Positions 2,825-56,886 of a stretch of 64,000 nt of DNA are shown piece after piece. The translations under genes were made by a program, and so were the position numbers. The notes under the pieces are model-generated. The model saw only the letters and a program-made list of their open reading frames with translations. It was not told the origin of the DNA and did no database searches. Origin of the DNA: an uncultured Gammaproteobacteria bacterium. Its GTDB lineage: Bacteria; Patescibacteriota; Microgenomatia; UBA8517. The first letter of the stretch is position 1; each line of letters begins with the position of its first letter. The stretch is from assembly GCA_964429215.1 (NCBI GenBank), contig CAYSAY010000004.1:8421-72420 (forward strand), in the 5' to 3' direction.

Positions 2825-5428
2825 TTAAGCAGTAGTATCTTCAATTAACGCAACTGTCGTTGTATAACCAGTTGAAGTTAAAGTACCAACAGTTGATGCT
2901 GGATAATATTTAGTAAATCCATCTGAAGATTTTCTAACCCTTATATATATCCCTACATTACCTGAATATTCCACATATTCAGTAGCTATACCACTAGCGT
3001 TAGTATCCTCATTCATAAGTTGCACATCTGTATCGTCCCTATAAACTGCAGTTTGTGCATTTACAATTATATTATTATTTTTATCAACAACAGTAATAGT
3101 TACAGGTACAATCTCCAAAGGATACAAATTATCAGTTTGAGAGGCGAGAGTAGAGGTTGTTGCAATTCTTATATAGGTTAGTAAATTTGTTGTCGAAGTT
3201 GTTGCACAAACTATCCTGTATTTTAATTTAAATCCTGTTGAAGCAGATATTGTTTCACCTGATAAATTTGTAGCAGTTAAATCTTTCCATGTTCCACCAT
3301 AACCACCACCTGTATCAATTTGATAATAAATATTATGGTTGCCCCATGTTGGGCCCGATGAATAGGTGACATTTGTTCCTGTAACAATTGGTGCAGTGTT
3401 TGTCAGGGCTGTACATCCTTTAACAAAATATCCTTGTTCAATTATAATTTCATCGTTTATGTTTGGCATATATAAATTTCCTGCAGAAGTAAAAACAGGA
3501 TTACCAGCTACATAAGTAACTAAACTTGTTGTTTCTGTTGTGGGCTCATTCATTGAAAGAACTACTCGCCCAGCGGTATCAGAGGTAAATGCATCCCAAA
3601 AATGAGTTCCATAGACAGATACTTGTCCTGTTGTTGTATTTGTTCCACCACAGTTTTTAATAACAGAGTTTAAATCTGCTACTGTTATGGTGTCTCCCAT
3701 GTCACCATAAACATGTTCATAGGTCATATTTTTGTCAGAGTTAATTGTGGAAATTGCGCCTGTTCTTGTTGGTGTCATATAAATTCTTTGAAGTTTAACT
3801 GTGTCGTTATTTCCTGCTGAAACAAAAATATATGCAGGGTTGTTTGCTGATCCACCCGATAGAGCTGTTGTCCTGCTACCAACGTTTCTAAGTTTAATGT
3901 TTGACGATTGTCCAACATTAAATATTCCTAGGTACGGATGCACATTTGCAATTGTACCTAAAAGCCCAAAAGTTACCCCATCAACTAAAATATTGTCAGA
4001 TGAAGCTAGTATGTAAATTGTATAAATTCCAGTTGTATTTGTGGTACTAACATATCTGTCACAATGGTCGAAGTCGTTTATTGTACAGTCAAATGATGAG
4101 GTGATTTGGAGCGAGGAGTTAAAGGAATAACAGTTATTTAAAGTAATATTACGAGATTGGGTAATCTGAAAACTCATTCCTGTTGATCTCGCAAAAGTGA
4201 TAATTCCACTTTTAGTGTTACTAACTGTAATATCTTTACAATATAAAATTTCAAAAGCATGATCTGTTGTACCTGCTGAAAATCTTTGGAAATCACAATT
4301 TGCTATTGTTCCTCCGGCGAAACAAGAAGTTGCGTTAAAGGTTCGTTGGTCGATTGACTGTGATGTTGAAGTCCCAAAATTATTAATATCTAAAGCAGTT
4401 GCCACCTCAGATAATAACAAATAATCAAAAGTGGAGGAGTTATGCGTACGAATCAAGTATGGCTGGACAAAGCTTAAATACCAATCTGTTGCAAAATATT
4501 CCATATCAATAGCACCGGCTGATGTTGTGACAAAGTCTGGTCTTGTTCCAGCTGTTGCACTTGGAATAGTATTTGTTGCCCTAGCTGCTGTTGTGCATTG
4601 TCTGCCTAAAATGTTTGGTATTCTTACCTTACATCCCGATGCTGGTACATATCCAACTGTCGTTGTTCCATTATGCCCGATTCTAATATTTCCATTTGTT
4701 TCCATGCAGACAAACTTACTTCTTGCATCAGTTCCTAAATTTGTGGTTGTCATTCCACCTGCATATAATGATGGATAATATTCATAAACATTACTACCAG
4801 AAGATGTTTCAATCCAAACACCTGGAACATAGGCAGTAGAACTGCCGTTTGTAGGGATTTGGATAAGTTGGTTTGCAGCACCTGATGTATTAGAAAGATA
4901 GAACCAAGTCCCTCTTGTTTGGAATTTTCCCAACCTCGGGACAGTTATAGCAATCGATTGATCATGAACGACTTCAATCCAACCAGCAACATCAGCCCCA
5001 CCTGCAGTAGCAGCACCAGCACCACTAAATGTTAAAGCTCCAGCACTAAATGTACCACCTGTGACTTCTCTGAGCTTTATAAACCCTGTAGCCCCAATTG
5101 TTGCAGATGGGGTAGCAGTTAAATTTGACCAAAAACCTAAAAAGTAACCTGAAACACCACCCTGACTAACTGTATCTCCTATTGCAGGTGTTCCGCTTCC
5201 ACCTGTAATTGCAAGCCATCGCACACTTGTTGCATCTATATAATATCCTCCACCTAAAGTTGCAGAAATAGTAACAGCACCCAAGCTACCTGTCATTGAA
5301 GCAGGAGAGTTCGCATGCCATCTTGTGTCCGTCCTGACTGTTAGGACCCCACCGTTACATGTCCATGTTTCGCCGGCAGTTCTTGCCGTGCCTCCATCCA
5401 AGAAAGTATCTGTAGTTATTGTGGCCAT
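2825..5428 (-). CDS. 867-aa Thr/Gly/Ser-rich beta-helix-like fibre protein; no signal peptide
   Basis: Composition and repeated short beta-strand motifs. The C-terminal ~80 aa (VQLMNEDT...YIRVRKSS.G.TKY.P.ST.GT.TSTGY) is paralogous to the C-terminus of the 1492-aa protein. Confidence 0.55.
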   Translation of the reverse strand: MATITTDTFLDGGTARTAGETWTCNGGVLTVRTDTRWHANSPASMTGSLGAVTISATLGGGYYIDATSVRWLAITGGSGTPAIGDTVSQGGVSGYFLGFWSNLTATPSATIGATGFIKLREVTGGTFSAGALTFSGAGAATAGGADVAGWIEVVHDQSIAITVPRLGKFQTRGTWFYLSNTSGAANQLIQIPTNGSSTAYVPGVWIETSSGSNVYEYYPSLYAGGMTTTNLGTDARSKFVCMETNGNIRIGHNGTTTVGYVPASGCKVRIPNILGRQCTTAARATNTIPSATAGTRPDFVTTSAGAIDMEYFATDWYLSFVQPYLIRTHNSSTFDYLLLSEVATALDINNFGTSTSQSIDQRTFNATSCFAGGTIANCDFQRFSAGTTDHAFEILYCKDITVSNTKSGIITFARSTGMSFQITQSRNITLNNCYSFNSSLQITSSFDCTINDFDHCDRYVSTTNTTGIYTIYILASSDNILVDGVTFGLLGTIANVHPYLGIFNVGQSSNIKLRNVGSRTTALSGGSANNPAYIFVSAGNNDTVKLQRIYMTPTRTGAISTINSDKNMTYEHVYGDMGDTITVADLNSVIKNCGGTNTTTGQVSVYGTHFWDAFTSDTAGRVVLSMNEPTTETTSLVTYVAGNPVFTSAGNLYMPNINDEIIIEQGYFVKGCTALTNTAPIVTGTNVTYSSGPTWGNHNIYYQIDTGGGYGGTWKDLTATNLSGETISASTGFKLKYRIVCATTSTTNLLTYIRIATTSTLASQTDNLYPLEIVPVTITVVDKNNNIIVNAQTAVYRDDTDVQLMNEDTNASGIATEYVEYSGNVGIYIRVRKSSDGFTKYYPASTVGTLTSTGYTTTVALIEDTTA

Positions 5429-7448: not shown

Positions 7449-10400
7449 TTAGGCTATAGTATCAGATGGTAAGGTTACAGTAAGTGAATAACCAGTTGAA
7501 GTAATTGTTCCAGTTGTAGAAACTGGAATATATTTTGTTTCTCCTGTTGACGACTTTCTTATTCTTACATAAATTGGGGTACTTACTGTGTAATTAAAAC
7601 TTTGTGTTGCAACACCATTTGAGGCTGTTCCTGTTGTTCCGCCTCCAACACCTGTTGAGGTAAAAGCAACACCTACAGTATTACTTGCAGCTCCGATTAA
7701 AGTAAAATCAGTATCCCCAACATTTACAATTGTATATTTAACTCCGATAACAAATGCTCCTGTTGTTACTGTTTGGGTATCCTCATTCATGAGTTCTACA
7801 TCATCACTTGTTCTGAAGATTGCAACTTGGGCAGTTGGTACAGGGTTTGTACTGGCATCAATTACTGTTACAGTTAGGTTAACAGAATTATTAACAATAG
7901 TCGATGAACCGTTCGACTCTCTGATTGTTGGGACGTCACCACCGTTTGAAACATTAATTGTTATAGCCCCTCCTGAAGCGTTATAGACATCTGCTTTGGC
8001 AGAATATATATAGTGGGTTTCTGAACCTGTTGAAGTTAAATCAACCTTCGGAGTACCTGCAATGGCAAAAGCTTTTGTAGTATGGAATGAAAGCGATGTT
8101 GTTGTCTGAGCGTTTATATAGTACATTGTTCCATCTGTTAACCCCATTGTGACAGAACCTCCTTGATCTTGATAATAAATTGCATCACCGGAAGCATATC
8201 CATGAATTGCGTCAACTGTCACAATATCTGTTCCCGAAACTACTCCAGTCCCAGTATTAAAACTTCTTTTGGCAACTCCACCTCCAGAAAATTGATGATT
8301 ACTAAATGTATAAGTTCCTGTTGCCGATATCCTAATTGAATGTCCAATGTCGCCATCGTGATTGTTTATAAAAGTTAAGTTAGTTAGCCCGTCACCTTCA
8401 GCTGCAGAAGTTATGGCAACCGCTCCTTGATTTGTAGTTGCTCTGGTATCGCGGATGGTTGAAGATGTTATATCTGCACCATTTAATACAATTTCTGAGC
8501 AATTATTAAAGATAAGTGTAGTAAATGTATAAACAGATCTTAAAGTAACTGTTGCACCTACAATAGTGGATCCTGAAAAGTCCCATGTTGCAGACGCTGA
8601 GGCACTAGCATTAAATCTCCAGTAGTAAGGAGTTCCACCAGTAAACAAACAGCTAGTAAATTTAATTGTATCTCCCGATTGACCGTTAAAATCAAAACCT
8701 ACTTGGTCATCATCAACATGCCACTGGGTAGTTTGTGAGGATGAACTTGCGCGAGTAGGGAATTGAAAACCTTTTAGATCACAAATAATATGTAAATCGT
8801 CTCCACCGCCAAATTGTGTTGGATGCCAAATATCTGCAACATCACCATTAACATCCCAAATAGGAAATAGATTTGTTCCATTAACTAAAGCTGCAGCAGC
8901 CTGCTGAAATGTAAGCGGGGAAGCAGAAGTTCCACCAGCTAATATTTGATTACCGGATTTTATTAAAAGTGACCAAGCACAGACAGTCGCTCCGAACGGA
9001 GCAGAGGCTGTTCCTAAAAATGTATCGACACCTTGTGCGCTAAGTGCTCCATGTTTTGCCCAAGCGGTATTTATGGTTTGGGTTGGTTGAATTGCAATTA
9101 CTTTTCTTTTAGCGCTATTTTGGTCGGCCGCATCTTTTGCTCCACATATCCAAGTTTTTCTTGGATTATCTGTTGTAAATATTGTTTTTATTTCAAGTCC
9201 ACAAACACCCCACTGTGCAGATGTTATAGTATCTCCCGGAGTTCTATCTTGTGTTAAGTTTTGGAAACCAGTGTGCATGGCCTGAGCTGGTGTTGCAGCA
9301 GTAGTGTCTGAAAGTTCTGTATAACCTGCAAGTGGCGCTCCAGCATTTGCAGCTCCTACACCGACAGTATAAAAAGAAGCATTATAGGCCGATCCATAAG
9401 CTGCCAGAGTAGTTAAAGGTTGTGCCGAATTACCTGTTGCCACTGTTTGTTGAACCATACCATCGCTTGTTGTTGTATCTACATTATTAAATTCACTTAG
9501 TGACCAAACTGCACCTGTTTGTGTTGTGCCCCCAAAAGCAATATCAAGCGTCCCTGTATAATCGGCGCCGGGTACACAACTCCAAACTGAAACACGATTT
9601 AAGTTGGTATTAAATAAAGTGGTTGAACGGCTGGTAAATGTTGGAGCTCCACCGCCAGTTGCTGTGATCGCGCTGACTGCCGTTGCAGATGTTCCGTGCG
9701 AATTTTCAACAGACATTAAGTATAATTTTCCTGCTTTCATTACTGCAGAGGCAGTTGTATAGCTAGTTGCATCAGTTGATGATGAGTTGGCGAGGATATG
9801 ACGGGGTGTAATACCTGGATTCATAAGTGTGATAGCAGTACCTTTATGCAAATCGTAAAATCCCAAATCGATGAAATCTCGAGGAAGCTGTAATAATAAT
9901 GATGTTAATAAATACCCACTTGACCAGTCGGGAATACCTAAAGTTCTAAGTGAATCATTTAACGAAACAGAGGCAACAAATTCACCACCAGTGTGTTGAA
10001 GAAGGTTGTTGGCTGTACCTGCAACAGGTATTGCTTGGTAAGATAAATGATAAGGATTAAGACCTGAGTCGGCAAGCCCAGTTGAAGCTCCTCTTAAAAG
10101 TGATCTTCCATCTTTAAGTGATTGGTCGAGAATTGGAGCATTGGTTGTCCAAGTAGCAGTAACCCTGCGTCTTATATAGTAGTAACTTGTGCCTTCACTG
10201 TTAATTGCTGTTGTCGCCCAATCTGTTGGTGGAGTAAAAGTAATATGCCCTTGTCCTGTTACTTGCCAAAGGGCAGTCCAGCTGGCAACATTAGGACGTA
10301 CTACAACTGTTAAAGTCGTCCATGCACCATTCCAATATTCCCATACACCTGTTGGTGTACCTCCGGATGTACCTGCACGAGAAATATCAAAACAAGCTGA

Positions 10401-27086: not shown

Positions 27087-30000
27087 CTAATTTAGATCAA
27101 TAATCCACCAGTTAAATTCAACATCGGTATCAATTGCTTCATTAAAACCAATTGTAAATTCGTTTAAATCTTTTGATTTGACATACAAAACTTTATTTTG
27201 GGTTGATGATACTGGCGTTACATATATCAAAGAATTAGTTTTTACTTTATTGTTTATAATTTTTAATTCAGTTGTGTTTGCTGTCAAAATTGCAGTTCCT
27301 GCAATTGAATTCGAATTTATTTGACCTTCAATAATTGTTGCAGATTCTGTTGCAATATCTGTAGTATTACTTCCAATAATTAAATTACCAAGAACCTTCA
27401 GATTGCCGGCAACCTCAAGGTTTCCTGTAAACAATGCGTTTCCGTCTGTGTCAATTTTGATTTTTCCAGCCATAATTTCAATTGGTGCTATTGCCAAAGA
27501 TTGGATGGATAAGGTGCCATCAATTGAGTCAAGCGATTTTGCAGTTAAGTTTTCTGCAACGAATAGGGAAGTGACAGTTGCATTTCCTGTTACAAAAAGA
27601 TTACTTGCGATAACGTCTGATATAGTTGCTGATGATGTTGCAGTATCAGTTGACCAATTAATTGCTTCTGCAAATAATGCTTGGTTGCCTTCAACTTCAG
27701 CCAAAAGTGCTTCAATCTCATCAAGTCTTTCAGACTCTATTTGATTTGCATATAATGTTCCAGAAATTGTTGCATCACCTGCAAATTCTGCATTTCCAGC
27801 TCCATCAATTACTGCAACTTCCTCATTATTATCTCCTTTTATAACAAGTTTTGAAGCAGTTTGGCTGTCATCAGGTTGCAAATCAATTATTAAATCAGTG
27901 TTAGCAATAGGGGAGATGATTTCAGATGTTTTCATACTTTCTATTTTTCGGTCTAATTCTTGAATTGCTCCAGCGAGTACGGCGGTTAATTTGCTGTAAT
28001 CTAGATTTTTATAACCTGCGGTGTCTGTGATGACAAGCTCTGGGAAAATCTGTTCGACATCTTGGGCAAGGAAACCAAGTGAGTTAGCGTCCCCTGTATT
28101 GTATTCGCCGTTCCAGGTGAAGCGAACGGGTTTGAGTTGTTGCACTAGTTCTAGATTGTCGGTAATGGAGGTAATATTTGTTTTTAAACGCGCATCTGAG
28201 AGGGCGGCAGTATTGTCGGTACAGGCCTCGTCGGCATTTAAGTCTAGACAAACATTACCCTTAACATCAAATAACCTGTCGGGAGTGGTGTCGCCTACAC
28301 CGACGTTGCCGGCATTAGGGTTGAGAGCGATATCTCGATAGGCAGTGCCAGGCTTCATTGCCTGAATCCAAGAATAATCCCCATCATGTACTCCAAAGAA
28401 AAGTGACTCGTCAGTGGACGTACCAGTGCCAGTGGTAAGACCCAACATACTAGACCCATTATATACAGAGGATGATCCGGTGATCTGCAATTTTGAACCA
28501 GGAGAAGTAACTCCGATGCCGACGTTGCCCCTCAGGGCTGTGGTCCCAATGCTCGTATTACCTAGTACGACCGTGTTTGTCCCAAGACCGGTGGCGTTGT
28601 AACCAATCACAATTTCGTTGGTATCGCCGTTTGCCAATGCTTTTGTCGAGTTACCAAGATATAGACTTGTATTGCTAGTCTGGTTGGCAGTTGCTCCACC
28701 TGAGATATATCTTCCAGCGTTTACACCGATTGCGTCGTTATAATAGCCAGTAGTGATGTTATAGAGAGCGTTTAGTCCTATAGCAGTGTTTTGATAACCA
28801 GTTGTATTTGATAGAAGAGTATTTATCCCTACTGCGGTGTTGTGCCAGCCAGTATTTACACTCAGAGCGTTTAAGCCTAAAGCAGTTGTACCAGGATCTA
28901 TAATCCCTGCTCTTGTTGTGCCATTGTAGATGACACCACCTGTCGTGTTGACTCTAGGCTCTTTGACACCTAGAGAGGCATCGGCAATATTATCGGTATA
29001 GGTAGTAGTGGTGTTGTCTGCAATAGTGGCTACCAATGCCAAAAGACTATTTAAGCCTCCTGCCGTAGATCGATATATCTTTCTAGATGTGACTGATGTA
29101 TCTGCTGAAACAGGAATAGCTGATAAATTGACCTGCTGATTGACAGGACTGACTACTGATGAGACTATGCCGCTTTCGGTTTCTCCGACAGCTGTGACAA
29201 AGGAGATGCGGTAGTAATAGGCTCCGTTAAGGTTGCCCGCCGTCGCATTGACGGCAACCGTAGGCGCTCCAGGGGCATCGACTTGATCGAAGCGTAGATG
29301 ACCATTTTTGAGATTGAGCTTTTGAGTAGGAGTTGTTGTCCCGATGCCGACGTTGCCAGAGTTGTTTATAGTCATTCTGTAGGATGGGGTAAATGTATTT
29401 CCGATAGCAGTAGTACTGTCAGTATGAAACGATATCGCGCCTCCTGATTGCCAGATGCCTGAGGCACCTCCAGCAGCTCTGAATGTCCACGCATTGGCGT
29501 CGGTAATAGCAGTTCCAGTATATTCAGCTCCTCCGGAAATCAAAGCTTGACCTCCGCCATCTGAAGTGAGATAGAGGCCTTCATTAGTTGTACTTTGTCT
29601 TAAGTTAAACCCAGATTTATTTGCAGCATTTGCTACTGTAACGAGCTGATCTGGAGCTGTTATCCCGATGCCGACGTTGCCAGAGGTAGGGGCCAAAAGT
29701 ATGTTGTTAAAGCCTGTCTGATTACCTTGGATTGATAAAGCACCAGTCGCACTAATTCTAGTAAAATCAAAACCACTTGTATCGCTAGCATTACTAAGTC
29801 TGAGAATGATTGCATCACTAGTAACTTGAGAAACAACGAGTTTACCACCCGGTGCAGTCGTTCCAATACCGACATTGCCAGTGGAATCAATCCTCATCCT
29901 TTCGTTTGTAGCGGAATTTCCTGTGCCAAAACGAATATCACCTGAATATCCAGATGTGCCACTTGTTCCGAACTCTATCCAAGATAAGTTGTTATATCCA

Positions 30001-33000
30001 TTATCTATTGCATACGAACCAGAGGCAATAGAAGAGTTTAATCTAATACCAGTATAACTCCAATCTGCAGAGGCTGAATTTTTCGAAGATGTCATGGTCA
30101 ATCCACGCCAAAGATTACTACCACCCTCTTTGTACTCGAATTTATCTAAGAAGCTATGGCTAGAATAGGTAGTACTGTTTGGTGCAGTAAAACCTTGAAG
30201 ATGGAGATTGGCGGCTGGAGCTGTGACTCCTATTCCAACATAACCTAAATCAGTCCCCGCACCACCTTTGATTGTCATCCTTGTAGCATTAGTATCACCG
30301 GTTGAGACCGTGACATCGTCTGTAGATGTGCCACCAGCCAGTACTAATCCTCCACCAGTTGAGTTAACTGTGTACGAACCAGTTCCTATACTAGTATTTG
30401 TGTAGTTGCCGACCGATACATGTTGCAAGGTAATTCCATCAGTTCTACCTGCGCCAACTAATCTAAAATCATCATCTCCAACCACATCTAATTGATAATT
30501 AGGTAAATTTGTTCCAACGCCAACTCTGCCTGCGTTTGTAATAACAAACTTTGGTGTACCTGAAGCACTGGCTGTAAACAAATCTCCCGCTTTGGTTTGG
30601 TTTACTATTAATGCAGCGTGACCTACATTTCCACCTGCGGGATTTTCTATTACCCAGTTTGTTGCTGTTAAATAATTAGCAAGTGTCGTTGGTGTTGCTG
30701 AAAATGTAATTGTAGATGCCCCCGCTGAATTTGCCAGAATTCCACCATCCATAAAGAGTGTGCCATCAATCTCGAGATCTTGTAATAATAAGTCGTTTGA
30801 TGCACTAATGTTTCCACCATGCGCTGTAGTTGCGATTCCTAACCTTGAATAAGTAGCGGCAGTTGTACCTCCAACTTGAAGAACTCCAGATATAGCTAAA
30901 TCATCACTTATATCAACTTCATCAGTTCCATCAGAAATAGCACCTCCTGAAAATGTTAAATTCCCAGCATTAATAACTGCTGAATTACCTAGATCTATTC
31001 CTGCAGTTGTAAATGTTCCTGAAAGAACTATACCTTTGTTTATAGTTCCTGTTGTATCAGCAATATCTATTCCATTTGTGATATTTCCTACAGTGTTTGA
31101 AATGTGTATTGCGTCCGTTATTCCTGAGTTTCCTGCACTATCAATTAACAATGCATCAGTTACTGCAGTTGTTCCTCCTACTGTTGTATCTAATTGTTGT
31201 AGTTTAAGTAGACTTTCAGTTGCAGTATCAGTAAATAATCCAACCACAGCATTATTAATTACTAAACCATTTTGATTAGTAGCAGATCCACCATTGTTAT
31301 TTATATTAAAAGTAAATGCATCAAGTGCTCCTGTTGGTGTCCATCCAAAGGTTGTTGGATTCACTCCCATTGCTAGAGTTAAAGAGGTGGATGGAGCTGT
31401 TAATTGATCCCATCTTAAAGCAGAGGCTGTAATCCCAACAGTACATGTCAATGTTCCTGTTGCATTAGCCACAGTACAACCAGTACTTCCAGATCCACCA
31501 CCTATTAAAATATCACCAGTTGCAGTTCCATTTAAGTTGAGTGCTCCTGAACCTTTTCCATCGATGGACATTGCGACATTTGTATCGGATCCAAATGCGG
31601 TTTGAGCAACTGTATTACCAGTTGCAGATGGCGTAAAAGTAAATCCGTTAGCTGCTGTTCCCGAAACTCTGGCTAAATTAAATACAGGTATACCTGACTG
31701 GGATGCTGTTAATATATTTTGGTTACCAGTTTCGTTGAAGATGGCAAGAGCTTTACCTGTTGAAATACCGTTGACATGTAGTTTGGATGTCGGACCTGTT
31801 GTCCCAATTCCTACATAACCATTATATTGGATAGTCAATCTTGCATCAGAAACATCTGCGTTTGACGAATCACCAGTACCATCAACAGTAAGGTGAAGAC
31901 TGCCTAGTCCAAAACCAACCGCCGTGTTTTCGAATATAATTCCTGCCTTTGCATAAGAATCTGAGGGTTGGGCCAAAGTTCTAAATCTCATACCTACAGC
32001 AGTTCCTGATCCTCCTGCATTTGCGGGGTTATCAAGTGTTAAGGCGTTGACAAACGCAGTCGTTGCTGGTGTTGAAACATGTAATGGTGATGCAGAGATT
32101 CTACTACCAATACCAACCCTACCAAGTGTTAATTCTGAAACTCCAAGTGTCGATGGGTAGGCTATTGTCCCTGTTGTTCCTGTGTCTAAATATGGTGTTG
32201 CAGTATCTGACCAGTATTGGTCTTGTGCTGCTGTTGATCTTCCATATATTCTATATGCGGTGAAGCCTGTTATGTCTGTCCATGCGACGGAGCAAGATCC
32301 TGTAGATCCAGTTGTAACTGTGCTAGAAGTTTCTGATGAAGCAATTGATTCAAGACCATTTCCGTCTGTGTAACTTACTTTATAATAATATGTACCTGCA
32401 ACAAGTGTTCCTCCTGTATCGGAACATGTAGCTACAACACCTGTAGGGGCTACAAGAGTACGAAGATAAGCACCACCTCCAGTGATTTGTAATGATGAAG
32501 ATGGAGTGGTTGTTCCAATTCCAACATTAGCACCTGAAAAATAAAACGCGTCGCTTGTGTTAAAACCAAATGTTCCTGCATCTGAATCTGTGGCTTCAAA
32601 GTTAAGTGTTGGATTGGCAGATTGATCACCGCCAAATAAAAATGTTCCTAAAGATTCATCAATAGAAAATATGGAGGCGGCAAGTGTTGTGCCACCTATG
32701 GCAAAGTCATTTGTTGTCGTCGTTGGTGATATTACTGCTGATGCAAGTGACCAGATTGAAGATCCTCCACCCGTCGTTATCGCAGCGTCTAAATCATCTA
32801 GAACATCCTGAACAGTAGTTGAAGCACTATTATCAAATTCGTCGAATGCACCGATTAAAGATGCTCCAGATGTGATATTGGTTGACCCAACATCGTTTAA
32901 GCCAATTGCTCCAATCGTTAAATCTGTGCCTGTTGCCAAGGTAAGACCTCCACCTGATGTAAAATCAGTGCCTGCGGCACCAATATTTGTAATAATTGAG

Positions 33001-34820
33001 TTTCCAGCATCTATTCCAGCAGTTGTAAATGTTCCAGAAAGTACAATACCTTTATCAATTGTTCCAGTAGTATCAGCAATATCAATTGCATTTGTAATAT
33101 TTCCTACGGTATTTGAAATATGAATTGCGTCCGTTATTCCAGAATTTCCTGCAGAATCAATTAATAATGCGTCTGTAACAGCAGTTGTACCAGTTCCTGT
33201 AGTGTCTAATTGTTGAAGTTTAAGTAATGATTCAGTAGCAACATCAGTAAATGCTCCTACAACTGCATTATTTATCACAAGTCCATTTTGTGCTGTTGTA
33301 GATCCACCATTATTGTTTACATTCATTGTAAATGCATCTAATGCTCCTGTTGGTGTCCATCCAAAGGTTGTTGGATTCACTCCCATTGCTAGAGTTAAAG
33401 CCCCATCAGGAGCCGTCAAGGCATTCCATTTTGATGTAGTAGCAAAAGTAGAGAAGTCAGTTACACAGTTTGTTTCTCCATCTCCTGTACAGAATTTTCC
33501 AGCTTCTACCGTGTCATCTGTTACTGCATTATTGTAAAGTGAGATTCCTGATGAAACATATAAATCTGCTCCAACTGTGGTAAGTCCTGTTGAATCAACT
33601 GAAAATTTGGAAGTAGGGGAAACACCACTTAAAAAATTAATAAAATTATAACCACTGGCTGCACTTGCAACTGTTCCAGAATAAAGAGAACCAGAAGTTA
33701 TGTTTGCATTAGTTGCATTTACGAATCCATTTGCAGATAGCCCAGGAGCTGCACCTTCAAAAGTTAAATCGAGTGTTCCAACACCATCTGGATTAATTGT
33801 TACCACACCATTACTTGTGTTTGGTGTGCTGATTGTCATTGCTAAGCCTTCAACTGCAAAAGTTCCAGAAGTTGATTGTAATTTTGGAGATGCGTTAGCA
33901 AGAACAAGTGTTCCTGAAGAATTTATGTAAGGTATTGTAGAAGTTCCTGTACCTGCTGGGAAGCCTTGAAGTGTTTCAGAGTTTAAAGCATAGGCAACTG
34001 TAGCAATCTGTATCCTAGGGGTCGCTTCTGCATCAGCCGCAACTGTAACTCCTACCCAGACTGCAGAGTTTTCAGAGAATACTGATGAAGCAATTTCAGC
34101 TCCACAGCTAGAACCTAAAAGAGTTGAAAATATTCCATCTTGATCAGGTGTTATGGAACAAGTTCCAGAGTTCCAAAGAGTAGTTCCACCTGAACTTGCA
34201 TCATATAACCTAAAAACTACGTTTGTGGCAGTTGTAATTGGGTTACCAACATTACTTGTCAGTCTTCCTTGAAAAGATAAAAATCTATTAGGTCTGGTTA
34301 ATGCTGCAGGGAAAGCAAGTGATCTATCAGCTGAATAAAAGACTTGATCATAGAAGGCATAACCAGATACTGAAGTGAATAGGATTAATATAGCTATGTG
34401 AATGTAAGTAGCCAAAGGATATGAGTGATATTTTTTGTACCAGTTTGGTCTTGTAAAGAACACTTTGAACAAAGCATTTTTAATTTTTGGTTTAGTCTCA
34501 AATTTTGCCAAAATTCTATCTTGCCATGACTTAATTATCTTCTTGTAGCTAGAAACGTTTTCAACACCTTCCATAAAGTTGTGTCCCATAAAGCTTGAAT
34601 AGCTACGAAGTGTAGAAAGCCTTCTGTTAAGTGTGGAAAGTGGGGTAGTTAATTTCTCAGTCTCAATATATTCTGTAACTAAGCTTCTGTCGATCTTTCT
34701 ATCCTTTGAAAAGTGTAAGAAATTGACGATATCAGACTTGTAATACTTCAAAGACTTCTGTGAAACACCACGAAGACTTAAATATTTCAAAAACTCTTCA
34801 ATTTTGTTTGTGGCAGTCAT
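27087..34820 (-). CDS. 2577-aa giant protein: N-terminal integrase-type SAM-like domain, one TM helix, huge Thr/Gly/Ala-rich fibre region with GNVGIGTTxPxxKL tail-fibre repeats, Peptidase_S74 intramolecular chaperone domain, ~290-aa C-terminal extension
   Basis: N-terminus IEEFLKYLSLRGVSQKSLKYYKSDIVNFLHFS...LSTLNRRLSTLRSYSSFM resembles the XerD N-terminal SAM-like fold. TM helix is YPLATYIHIAILILFTSVSGYAFY. Chaperone domain is LSDARLKTNITSITDNLELVQQLKPVRFTWNGEYNTGDANSLGFLAQDVEQIFPELVITDTAGYKNLDYSKLTAVLAGAIQELDRKIE. Confidence 0.75.
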   Translation of the reverse strand: MTATNKIEEFLKYLSLRGVSQKSLKYYKSDIVNFLHFSKDRKIDRSLVTEYIETEKLTTPLSTLNRRLSTLRSYSSFMGHNFMEGVENVSSYKKIIKSWQDRILAKFETKPKIKNALFKVFFTRPNWYKKYHSYPLATYIHIAILILFTSVSGYAFYDQVFYSADRSLAFPAALTRPNRFLSFQGRLTSNVGNPITTATNVVFRLYDASSGGTTLWNSGTCSITPDQDGIFSTLLGSSCGAEIASSVFSENSAVWVGVTVAADAEATPRIQIATVAYALNSETLQGFPAGTGTSTIPYINSSGTLVLANASPKLQSTSGTFAVEGLAMTISTPNTSNGVVTINPDGVGTLDLTFEGAAPGLSANGFVNATNANITSGSLYSGTVASAASGYNFINFLSGVSPTSKFSVDSTGLTTVGADLYVSSGISLYNNAVTDDTVEAGKFCTGDGETNCVTDFSTFATTSKWNALTAPDGALTLAMGVNPTTFGWTPTGALDAFTMNVNNNGGSTTAQNGLVINNAVVGAFTDVATESLLKLQQLDTTGTGTTAVTDALLIDSAGNSGITDAIHISNTVGNITNAIDIADTTGTIDKGIVLSGTFTTAGIDAGNSIITNIGAAGTDFTSGGGLTLATGTDLTIGAIGLNDVGSTNITSGASLIGAFDEFDNSASTTVQDVLDDLDAAITTGGGSSIWSLASAVISPTTTTNDFAIGGTTLAASIFSIDESLGTFLFGGDQSANPTLNFEATDSDAGTFGFNTSDAFYFSGANVGIGTTTPSSSLQITGGGAYLRTLVAPTGVVATCSDTGGTLVAGTYYYKVSYTDGNGLESIASSETSSTVTTGSTGSCSVAWTDITGFTAYRIYGRSTAAQDQYWSDTATPYLDTGTTGTIAYPSTLGVSELTLGRVGIGSRISASPLHVSTPATTAFVNALTLDNPANAGGSGTAVGMRFRTLAQPSDSYAKAGIIFENTAVGFGLGSLHLTVDGTGDSSNADVSDARLTIQYNGYVGIGTTGPTSKLHVNGISTGKALAIFNETGNQNILTASQSGIPVFNLARVSGTAANGFTFTPSATGNTVAQTAFGSDTNVAMSIDGKGSGALNLNGTATGDILIGGGSGSTGCTVANATGTLTCTVGITASALRWDQLTAPSTSLTLAMGVNPTTFGWTPTGALDAFTFNINNNGGSATNQNGLVINNAVVGLFTDTATESLLKLQQLDTTVGGTTAVTDALLIDSAGNSGITDAIHISNTVGNITNGIDIADTTGTINKGIVLSGTFTTAGIDLGNSAVINAGNLTFSGGAISDGTDEVDISDDLAISGVLQVGGTTAATYSRLGIATTAHGGNISASNDLLLQDLEIDGTLFMDGGILANSAGASTITFSATPTTLANYLTATNWVIENPAGGNVGHAALIVNQTKAGDLFTASASGTPKFVITNAGRVGVGTNLPNYQLDVVGDDDFRLVGAGRTDGITLQHVSVGNYTNTSIGTGSYTVNSTGGGLVLAGGTSTDDVTVSTGDTNATRMTIKGGAGTDLGYVGIGVTAPAANLHLQGFTAPNSTTYSSHSFLDKFEYKEGGSNLWRGLTMTSSKNSASADWSYTGIRLNSSIASGSYAIDNGYNNLSWIEFGTSGTSGYSGDIRFGTGNSATNERMRIDSTGNVGIGTTAPGGKLVVSQVTSDAIILRLSNASDTSGFDFTRISATGALSIQGNQTGFNNILLAPTSGNVGIGITAPDQLVTVANAANKSGFNLRQSTTNEGLYLTSDGGGQALISGGAEYTGTAITDANAWTFRAAGGASGIWQSGGAISFHTDSTTAIGNTFTPSYRMTINNSGNVGIGTTTPTQKLNLKNGHLRFDQVDAPGAPTVAVNATAGNLNGAYYYRISFVTAVGETESGIVSSVVSPVNQQVNLSAIPVSADTSVTSRKIYRSTAGGLNSLLALVATIADNTTTTYTDNIADASLGVKEPRVNTTGGVIYNGTTRAGIIDPGTTALGLNALSVNTGWHNTAVGINTLLSNTTGYQNTAIGLNALYNITTGYYNDAIGVNAGRYISGGATANQTSNTSLYLGNSTKALANGDTNEIVIGYNATGLGTNTVVLGNTSIGTTALRGNVGIGVTSPGSKLQITGSSSVYNGSSMLGLTTGTGTSTDESLFFGVHDGDYSWIQAMKPGTAYRDIALNPNAGNVGVGDTTPDRLFDVKGNVCLDLNADEACTDNTAALSDARLKTNITSITDNLELVQQLKPVRFTWNGEYNTGDANSLGFLAQDVEQIFPELVITDTAGYKNLDYSKLTAVLAGAIQELDRKIESMKTSEIISPIANTDLIIDLQPDDSQTASKLVIKGDNNEEVAVIDGAGNAEFAGDATISGTLYANQIESERLDEIEALLAEVEGNQALFAEAINWSTDTATSSATISDVIASNLFVTGNATVTSLFVAENLTAKSLDSIDGTLSIQSLAIAPIEIMAGKIKIDTDGNALFTGNLEVAGNLKVLGNLIIGSNTTDIATESATIIEGQINSNSIAGTAILTANTTELKIINNKVKTNSLIYVTPVSSTQNKVLYVKSKDLNEFTIGFNEAIDTDVEFNWWIIDLN
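30930..31420 (-). repeat. internal long direct repeat, copy B, of the giant gene
   Basis: Near-identical DNA to 32940..33430 at a constant 2010-bp offset; encodes RWDQLTAPSTSLTLAMGVNPTTFGWTPTGALDAFTFNINNNGG... Confidence 0.7.
32940..33430 (-). repeat. internal long direct repeat, copy A, of the giant gene
   Basis: e.g. ggtgtccatccaaaggttgttggattcactcccattgctagagttaaag is present in both copies. Confidence 0.7.
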
Positions 34821-55546: not shown

Positions 55547-56086
55547 ATGTATATCATGAAAAAACTTAAATCATTATTTCAATCAGAACAGAAATTATTT
55601 CATACGCAAGACTTAGCTTTAATTTTAGGAATAACTAATAGGCATAATTTAAGGATGACTATTTCTCGATACATTAAAAATGGTTATTTACAACCAATAT
55701 ACAGGGGGTTATATTCGACTGTTCCCATAGATGATTTAGAGAAGTTTCAATTAGGAATGTCTTTGATTCATAAATATTGTTATGTAAGTTTAGGATCTAT
55801 CTTTGAAATTCATGGCGTAATTAATCAAAAAGTTTATTCCGTGAATTTCGTTTCGTCAGTTTCCAAGAAAATTGAATTTGATGGCAAATTATTTGTTTAT
55901 CGACAAATGAATCCACAATTTTTACTTAACGCTGAAGGAATAACATTGGAAAATGGAATATATAAAGCAAGTTTGGAAAGAGCTGTTGCAGACAGCCAGT
56001 ATTTTAATTTAAGTACTTATTTTGATAGTCCAGATCTGATAAATTGGGATAGAGTAGCAGAAATAAAAGCAATAATAGGCTATTAA
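55547..56086 (+). CDS. AbiEi-family antitoxin / transcriptional regulator (type IV TA)
   Basis: N-terminal wHTH region with FHTQDLALILGI...RYIKNGYLQPIYRGLYS typical of AbiEi; upstream partner of AbiEii. Confidence 0.7.
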   Translation: MYIMKKLKSLFQSEQKLFHTQDLALILGITNRHNLRMTISRYIKNGYLQPIYRGLYSTVPIDDLEKFQLGMSLIHKYCYVSLGSIFEIHGVINQKVYSVNFVSSVSKKIEFDGKLFVYRQMNPQFLLNAEGITLENGIYKASLERAVADSQYFNLSTYFDSPDLINWDRVAEIKAIIGY

Positions 56087-56091
56087 AAAAT

Positions 56092-56814
56092 ATGATATCA
56101 GATAAAAAAACAGATATATTACACAAATTTCAGTTGCAACAGCTATTAACAGCCGTTGTAGATGACCAATATATATCGCAACATGTTTGTTTTAAAGGTG
56201 GAACTTGTGCTGAAATGTCAGGATTTTTGGATAGGTTTTCAGTTGATTTAGACTTTGATCTCATTGATAGTATTGACGAAAAATTATTTAGATCTCGTGT
56301 TAGTAAAATTGCCACAAAACTAGGTTTAATTGATGATAATAAAAACACAATATCACTTTTTTTTAATTTCAAATACAAATCCGTTGCCAACCAGAGAAAC
56401 AAAATTAAATTTAGTTTTTTTCAAAATTTGGTAATTTCAAACGATTATGAAGCTAGATTTTTACCTGAAATAAATAGAACTGTAATGTGCCAAACCATTG
56501 AAACCATGTTTGCTAATAAACTAGTAACAGTAATAGATAGATATAACAGGCACAAAGAGGTGGAAGGTCGTGATATTTACGATATTCATTATTTTTTCTC
56601 ACAAGGTTATAAATATAAAGAAGAAATAATCAAAGAAAGAACTGGACTTGAAGTTTCTGTATACTTTAAAAAATTAATTGATTTCATAAATATTAAAGTG
56701 ACCCAAAAAATGATTGATGAAGATTTAAATATGCTTTTACCTTTAGAAAAGTTTAATAAAATAAGAAAAATATTAAAACAAGAAACTCTCCTGTATCTTA
56801 GAAATTGTATCTAG
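56092..56814 (+). CDS. AbiEii/AbiGii-family nucleotidyltransferase toxin (DUF1814)
   Basis: CFKGGTCAEMSGFLDRFSVDLDFDL matches the FKGGTAL...RfSeDlDf signature. Confidence 0.8.
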   Translation: MISDKKTDILHKFQLQQLLTAVVDDQYISQHVCFKGGTCAEMSGFLDRFSVDLDFDLIDSIDEKLFRSRVSKIATKLGLIDDNKNTISLFFNFKYKSVANQRNKIKFSFFQNLVISNDYEARFLPEINRTVMCQTIETMFANKLVTVIDRYNRHKEVEGRDIYDIHYFFSQGYKYKEEIIKERTGLEVSVYFKKLIDFINIKVTQKMIDEDLNMLLPLEKFNKIRKILKQETLLYLRNCI

Positions 56815-56886
56815 TCGGAATGCTGGGAATTGAACCCAGTGTCTCTTCGTCCCGAACGAAGCGTGATACCGATTCACTACATTCCG
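56815..56886 (-). tRNA. tRNA-Pro (anticodon CGG)
   Basis: Reverse complement folds as acceptor CGGAATG/CATTCCG, D-arm GTGA-ATCGGTA-TCAC, anticodon stem CTTCG/CGAAG with loop TTCGGGA, T-arm CTGGG-TTCAATT-CCCAG, discriminator A; CCA not encoded. Confidence 0.8.

Follow-up and report, generated by a model that had tools for sequence, protein, structure and literature searches.

Patchy gene conversion is supported between old domain copies in a giant fibre gene of a Microgenomatia bacterium

We analysed a 64,000-nucleotide stretch of DNA (the window) from an uncultured bacterium. The window covers positions 8,421 to 72,420 of the forward strand of contig CAYSAY010000004.1, in assembly GCA_964429215.1. 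The organism is named as a gammaproteobacterium in GenBank and has the GTDB lineage Patescibacteriota; Microgenomatia; UBA8517. Its closest genomic relatives are metagenome-assembled genomes (MAGs) of Woesebacteria/Microgenomates, in the Patescibacteria or candidate phyla radiation (CPR). The window is ordinary chromosome, encoding LeuRS, ArgRS, MreB, ComEA/ComEC, histidine kinases and two tRNAs. We focused on a giant open reading frame (ORF) that carries two copies, A and B, of one domain (Table 1). When the giant protein was looked up by exact match in public assemblies, no record was found.

A repeat-finding scan of the window identified one long direct repeat in the giant ORF (300 nt, 79% identity, start-to-start distance 2016). 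Similarly, blastn of the gene against itself aligned 30981-31384 with 32997-33400 (405 nt, 83%, E=8e-103). In an ungapped register, the similar stretches are Trp465-Ser608 and Trp1137-Ser1280, with sharp edges on both sides. Hence, the repeat unit is 432 bp, or 144 aa, and the copies are offset in frame by 2016 bp, or 672 codons. They share 80.6% of nucleotides and 128 of 144 residues (89%). A reading of the DNA from the letters alone (the sequence-only reading) had described near-identical units of ~490 bp, encoding ~170 aa, at an offset of 2010 bp. The direct repeat is real, and two strings quoted in that reading recur, at 31336/33352 and 31058/33074, exactly 2016 bp apart. However, the offset and the unit length required correction, and the copies are not near-identical. 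Perfect runs shared by the copies reach 59 nt once and otherwise 17 nt at most.

The dot-plot proposed in the same reading was also made. With BLOSUM62 scoring, the giant protein gave a single strong diagonal against itself, continuous and at an offset of 672 aa. This diagonal covers the domain alone, and zero further similarity was detected along it. Hence, one domain has been duplicated, not a 2-kb segment, and a tandem 2016-bp unit is ruled out. A hidden Markov model (HMM) of the domain family found no more diverged copies in the giant protein or in other ORFs of the window. Likewise, hhalign comparison of the domain with other modules of the giant protein gave probabilities below 1%, and so no remote homology.

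Copies A and B differ at 84 of the 432 nt. There are 19, 12 and 53 differences at codon positions 1, 2 and 3, respectively, and 46 codon differences are purely synonymous. By the method of Nei and Gojobori (NG86), nonsynonymous divergence (dN) is 0.11, synonymous divergence (dS) is 0.73 and dN/dS is 0.15. A and B are an old duplicate under purifying selection. Because dS across the whole repeat is high, rather than near zero, the duplication is old and not recent. The sequence-only reading had suggested the opposite; that is, a recent tandem or segmental event with copies too young to have diverged. Consistent with that suggestion, A and B are mutual best matches in our library search (84% on an extended domain alignment, with no other library protein above 68%) and the perfect 59-nt tract exists. 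However, recent duplication is made very improbable by the synonymous differences and by the empty 672-aa diagonal, which leaves no duplicated 2016-bp unit. In addition, B resembles the copy of another organism (83%) more than it resembles A (75%) in the centre of the domain.

We next considered the 59-nt tract. When codon columns were shuffled, 14 of 20,000 shuffles attained a run of this length. In ortholog L003, which has a single copy of the domain, the same stretch is 75% identical in DNA and 60% identical at third positions. Since the identity to L003 is only 75%, the tract is not a DNA constraint that holds across species.

The outgroup for a test of patchwork between A and B was R1, one of two domain copies in a relative recovered from a metagenome (contigs L020 and L021; see below). 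The relationships change along the domain. For nt 1-28, A is nearer to R1 than to B (A-B 50%, A-R1 75%, B-R1 43%). For nt 29-87, A and B are identical and both stand at 71% to R1. For nt 88-260, B is nearer to R1 than to A (A-B 75%, A-R1 75%, B-R1 83%) and, for nt 261-432, A and B are again the closest pair (A-B 84%, A-R1 75%, B-R1 80%). Informative sites are clustered in the 432-nt core (runs test, P=0.006). In a longer alignment of 165 codons the runs test gave P=0.0015, and a two-breakpoint maximum chi-squared permutation test gave P<0.0005. Because the centre of B is nearer to R1 than to A, the split of A and B predates the split of the two organisms. The synteny agrees, since B and R1 both follow the same upstream module. 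Concerted evolution is expected to leave over-long identity and outgroup relationships that shift along the domain, and both were found. The data support patchy gene conversion, in which short tracts appear to have been homogenised between the old copies.

Could purifying selection alone account for these patterns, with the tract and the mosaic arising by chance or from uneven constraint? The low dN/dS does indicate strong constraint on the protein, and the motif encoded by the 59-nt tract (LTLAMG..TTFGWTPTG) is conserved more strongly than any other in the family. Furthermore, third positions match L003 at 60% in the tract and at 42% elsewhere. However, all 20 third positions of the tract are identical, which constraint on the protein leaves unexplained, as the shuffles illustrate. 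Such constraint also fails to explain why A-B identity exceeds B-R1 identity in one segment and is below it in the next. Finally, the relative described below has a 447-nt perfect tract next to divergent domain starts, which shows homogenisation in this gene family. We therefore regard selection alone as an unlikely explanation.

Contigs L020 and L021 were recovered by a metagenome scan and come from the same sample (Ga0233425), where the contigs bear the names Ga0233425_10010378 and Ga0233425_10017157. They overlap by 127 identical bases and, when joined, encode an ortholog of 2423 aa. The ortholog has two domain copies, R1 and R2, 978 bp apart. These are 100% identical over 447 nt, and the first ~20 residues of the two domains differ. 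The relative is without copy A and has an extra copy after B. Here, homogenisation, or else partial duplication, appears to have been much more extensive and very recent. The sequence-only reading had raised ongoing gene conversion. A weaker, patchy form of that idea is supported by the 59-nt tract, by the mosaic of A, B and the relative and by the 447-nt tract. The contig break between L020 and L021 falls exactly at the repeat end. A short-read assembly is likely to break up or collapse any giant CPR fibre gene whose internal copies are identical.

The domain itself is rare. No Pfam family matched the repeat unit at the gathering threshold (best E=0.34), a sequence search of the PDB found no relative and a fold search with the predicted domain found no match in the PDB or BFVD. 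Word-indexed homolog searches returned 0 matches for the repeat unit and 1 weak match for the family alignment, so an exhaustive HMMER search was needed. Among 1.84 billion cluster representatives, this search identified only 31 proteins with the domain. All family members inspected are long proteins rich in Thr, Gly and Asn. The family HMM, built from the hits, finds 1-5 copies per protein; there are exactly 2 in the window protein and 0 in other ORFs of the 64-kb window. In many members a C-x(n)-C pair, like those before A and B, precedes the domain. IMG/VR viral contigs contained no relative of the domain. With neither IMG/VR relatives nor a BFVD fold match, a phage origin of the domain is unsupported. 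In an AlphaFold monomer model, the domain has almost no secondary structure within the chain, though its C-terminal half has a predicted local distance difference test (pLDDT) score of 80-87. The near absence of intrachain structure in the model would be compatible with an intertwined oligomer.

Orthologs of the giant protein differ mainly in the centre. The N-terminal ~425 aa are kept, with 57-70% identity. The C-terminal ~290 aa are 52-58% identical in L001, L003 and L005, and 40% identical in L004 over a longer alignment. The centres are mosaic and not conserved. The repeat domain is absent from L004, limited to its first 26 residues in L005 and single in L003. There are two divergent copies in L001 and two, at other positions, in L020+L021. 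As module copy number and position differ even among close relatives, the fibres have evidently been remodelled by recombination.

These observations bear on a further explanation; the copies could have been acquired separately from other fibre genes, by shuffling of cassettes between paralogous or foreign genes. The mosaic centre, which differs between orthologs, and the gain and loss of copies in the L020+L021 relative both fit this idea. So do the relationships within proteins P0001, P0002, P0011 and P0012. Here, copies in the same protein are not nearest relatives and are closer to copies in other proteins. Conversely, in the window protein and in P0009, each copy has its nearest relative within its own protein. 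The P0009 copies are 85% identical in DNA over a 235-nt core, against a background dS of 1.2. In P0021 the two copies are 87% alike, though copy 1 has a closer match (98%) in the near-identical protein P0028. Against separate acquisition, no other ORF of the window has the domain, and A-B identity overall (80.6% of nucleotides) exceeds that to any other copy found (74-78%). Separate acquisition is a minority possibility that we take seriously. It is an account of the copies' origin alone and does not conflict with conversion at a later stage.

The context of the domain was examined using the rest of the giant protein (Table 1). Most probably, this protein is a trimeric fibre anchored in the membrane, of the type known from phage tail fibres and from mosaic adhesive trimers (MATs). 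This follows the sequence-only reading, which had described a fibre and which is upheld by the Pfam Peptidase_S74 domain and by PDB matches to fragments of Bdellovibrio MATs. The matches of the S74 region in PHROG are tail-fibre proteins, including the long tail fibre distal subunit. Comparison of aa 1400-1860 with the PDB by phmmer gave 8OND (E=4e-11) and 8OJN (E=1e-5). The alignments centre on a GNVGIGT module motif, and the recurring signature that aligns to Bd2133 and Bd3182 is '...RMRI...GNVGIGT.AP..KL.V'. Just upstream of the S74 region, aa 1979-2046 (28683-28886) have a 17-residue periodicity, NTAxGxxAL..NTTGxx, and no Pfam match. We take this run to resemble the head repeats of trimeric autotransporter adhesins.

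In place of a signal peptide, aa 7-160 (34341-34802) of the giant protein comprise a domain of DNA-binding type, presumed to be cytoplasmic, and a membrane helix. In NCBIfam the N-terminus matches only the N-terminal part of Xer recombinases; hence, the catalytic domain of the recombinase is absent. The SAM-like N-terminus is also conserved in orthologs P0004, P0005/L003, L004 and L005. After the membrane helix is a conserved domain (aa ~180-300), which lies within the N-terminal alignments that are 57-70% identical in orthologs. On contig L030, which encodes P0009, a separate 163-aa gene (504-995) with a weak integrase SAM-like match is directly upstream of the fibre gene. The N-terminus of the P0009 fibre protein itself is SAM-like by eye only.

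Table 1. Positions of features in the window and, for the last row, in contigs of the metagenomic relative.
Feature	Residues	Coordinates	Strand	Basis and remarks
Giant ORF; probable membrane-anchored S74-type mosaic fibre with both repeat copies	2577 aa	27087..34820	minus	ORF list; Pfam Phage_int_SAM_1 and Peptidase_S74; orthologs in Microgenomates/Woesebacteria MAGs
N-terminal integrase SAM-like domain	7-77	34590..34802	minus	Pfam PF02899, E=6.5e-8; presumed cytoplasmic from position before the hydrophobic segment
Single hydrophobic segment, putative membrane anchor	~137-160	34341..34412	minus	Kyte-Doolittle; only 19-residue windows above 1.6
Cysteine pair shortly upstream of copy A	Cys444-Cys452	33465..33491	minus	Cysteine positions; comparable C-x(n)-C stretch in many family members
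Repeat copy A	465-608	32997..33428	minus	Ungapped register alignment, codon analysis; family HMM 177 bits
Perfect 59-nt tract in copy A, LTLAMGVNPTTFGWTPTGAL; candidate gene-conversion tract	474-493	33342..33400	minus	Longest identical run
Cysteine pair shortly upstream of copy B	Cys1115-Cys1126	31443..31478	minus	Cysteine positions; comparable C-x(n)-C stretch in many family members
Repeat copy B	1137-1280	30981..31412	minus	2016 bp further downstream in the gene than copy A; family HMM 175 bits
Perfect 59-nt tract in copy B, matching that of copy A		31326..31384	minus	Longest identical run
Fibre module similar to the crystallised part of Bdellovibrio Bd3182	1418-1545	30186..30569	minus	PDB 8OJN, E=1e-4 to 1e-5
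Fibre module similar to Bdellovibrio Bd2133	1764-1843	29292..29531	minus	PDB 8OND, E=2e-7 (whole protein), 4e-11 (segment)
Peptidase_S74 intramolecular chaperone/autoprotease	2208-2263	28032..28199	minus	Pfam PF13884, E=1.1e-16; SDARLK (SDxxxK) at aa 2208
Conserved C-terminal region after S74	2292-2577	27090..27947	minus	Ortholog alignments
Wzy_C and TPR membrane protein, directly downstream of the fibre gene	638 aa	25106..27022	minus	Pfam
Second ORF with an internal repeat	1492 aa	7449-11927	minus	No Pfam, NCBIfam or PHROG match
Perfectly duplicated 447-nt domain in the relative		L020 8740-9186; L021 1-1105		Contigs overlap by 127 nt

Taken together, our interpretation is that A and B are probably old, paralogous domain copies in the variable central stalk of the fibre, kept alike mainly by purifying selection, with short conversion tracts in addition. 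Several points weigh against this interpretation. First, the mosaic test depends on one outgroup copy and 72 informative sites. Second, chance or selection acting on the mRNA might in principle have produced the 59-nt identity, given that P is ~7e-4 for one locus and was obtained post hoc. Third, the join of L020 and L021 derives from a 127-nt overlap at a repeat boundary; what is certain within one molecule is the 127-134 nt duplicated within L021. Fourth, no same-species contigs, which might have carried a 2016-bp deletion variant, were found among GTDB species representatives or JGI metagenomes, where the closest relatives are 57-70% identical, so that neither present-day conversion nor length variants are observed. 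Fifth, the trimeric state, the surface exposure and any binding function are suggested by homology. Last, the AlphaFold model of the domain has moderate confidence (pLDDT 73.6) and matched no known fold.

The following mechanism can be envisaged. The fibre would be a trimer, held in the membrane by a single N-terminal helix, and the S74 chaperone domain would assist its folding. Its stalk would be assembled from interchangeable modules, of which the repeated domain is one, with a structural (stalk) or adhesive role. Homologous recombination between copies, resulting in conversion, duplication or loss, would change fibre length and module content over evolutionary time. Such recombination could explain why copies have been gained, lost and homogenised among relatives. 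The sequence-only reading had noted that the repeats are a substrate for in-frame deletion or expansion. Formally this is so, since 2016 is 3 x 672, and the A/B pair could yield an in-frame deletion of 672 codons. However, with 81% identity and one 59-nt perfect block the pair would currently be a poor recombination substrate, and deletion should be rare.

A more active process, programmed variation, was also considered. This could be either a diversity-generating retroelement (DGR), with template and variable repeats, or a contingency locus that switches length at high frequency. Many DGRs aimed at surface proteins are known from CPR genomes. Moreover, the repeat is in frame, and deletion would spare both the anchor and the S74 end. 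However, the mismatches are not specific for adenine. Of the 84, copy A has adenine at 20 and copy B at 32, and each of the twelve substitution classes occurs. A Pfam scan detected no reverse transcriptase domain in the 37 window ORFs that are 150 aa or longer. On the basis of the mismatches and of these 37 ORFs, a DGR target is ruled out. RecA-dependent deletion between repeats demands high sequence identity, so 81% is poor material for frequent switching. Programmed variation of either kind is barely credible here.

A bolder proposal, which we consider speculative and rather unlikely, is that the 140-residue unit is a new host-binding domain of the fibres of CPR epibionts. Intragenic recombination would then retune reach and valency, and coupling across the membrane to the cytoplasmic SAM-like domain could let the fibre double as a contact sensor. 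If true, conversion, gain and loss of copies, of which the 100%-identical pair of the relative would be an example, would be a regular route by which ultra-small bacteria retune a host-attachment fibre.

The gene directly downstream of the fibre gene encodes a Wzy_C (O-antigen ligase-like)/TPR protein. Full-length homologs (27-42% identity) are beside the fibre gene in 12 related loci. The two genes are thus a conserved pair, and the downstream protein may serve to glycosylate or anchor the fibre, which is rich in Thr and Ser. An 867-aa ORF (2825-5428, minus strand) has no family match and has a full-length homolog (35%) in L002, near the fibre gene of that genome. It may be another conserved large protein of the fibre neighbourhood. 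Elsewhere in the window, an AbiEi antitoxin/AbiEii toxin pair (55547-56886) adjoins tRNA-Pro(CGG), and there are genes of the RhuM family (11931-12941) and with a Fic domain (15194-16246). These are small genes of defence or mobile type amid a housekeeping region.

The sequence-only reading had also assigned the same kind of repeat to a 1492-aa gene. The repeat and its coordinates are real; 10473-11090 aligns with 9183-9812 (aa 280-485 and 706-915), defining a domain of ~206 aa. However, this domain differs from the repeat of the giant gene, to which it is not significantly similar, and the two cases are alike only as internal domain duplications. The copies are 63% identical both in protein and in DNA; dS is 1.6, and their longest stretch of identity is 20 nt. 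By these comparisons, the repeat is unrelated to that of the giant gene and much older. At the N-terminus of the same ORF there is a possible third copy, which is very weak (25% over 136 aa). Only the C-terminal ~190 aa have a relative among the fetched loci (L006).

Surface proteins are well known to evolve by duplication of internal domains with patchy gene conversion, and the event itself is ordinary. Its setting, in a protein family and a domain that are both poorly described, is less so. A giant, S74-dependent fibre, probably like MATs and tail fibres, is documented in Microgenomates/Woesebacteria, a CPR lineage with essentially unknown host attachment. Our search of the literature found nothing specific on CPR fibres of this architecture. 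In addition, a rare and unannotated fibre module of ~140 residues is defined (31 representatives in 1.84 billion proteins). The coincidence of identical module copies with an assembly break, as for L020 and L021, matters when giant CPR genes are counted or compared.

Finally, we compared the giant protein with known systems. The MAT fibres of Bdellovibrio bacteriovorus are intertwined trimers, with one end conserved for display and other parts exchanged (Caulton et al. 2024, PMC10769870). One MAT subfamily bears an S74 chaperone/protease with SDxxxK, and MATs are recognised by a conserved β-rich domain of ~130 aa directly after the signal peptide (PMC10769870). The giant protein also has a C-terminal Peptidase_S74 with SDxxxK, as in that subfamily. 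Its repeated modules align to the crystallised segments of Bd2133 and Bd3182, placing it with the β-helix/β-prism modules of MATs. It likewise has conserved ends, with other parts swapped between paralogs or orthologs. However, it is from a CPR bacterium and is ~2.5 times longer. The place of the signal peptide is taken by an integrase SAM-like domain and a membrane helix, and ~310 extra conserved residues follow S74. Furthermore, its duplicated 140-residue domain is without a match among solved structures, including six MAT structures.

Phage tail fibres and tailspikes of the endosialidase type (PF13884) share the S74 domain and the PHROG long tail fibre distal subunit matches. A modular, recombining architecture is typical of tail fibres. 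In contrast to these, the giant gene is in a chromosomal housekeeping context (LeuRS, ArgRS, MreB, ComEC) with no phage genes around, and its repeated domain lacks IMG/VR or BFVD relatives. The Alp/Rib family and Aap/SasG are surface adhesins with internal repeats that evolve in concert. Here too, whole-domain repeats occur in one surface protein, copy number varies among relatives and repeats are more alike within genes than between genes. The repeats of Alp/Rib and Aap/SasG are usually tandem, numerous and near-identical in DNA, with frequent length variants. The giant gene differs in having two dispersed copies, 672 codons apart, with 81% DNA identity.

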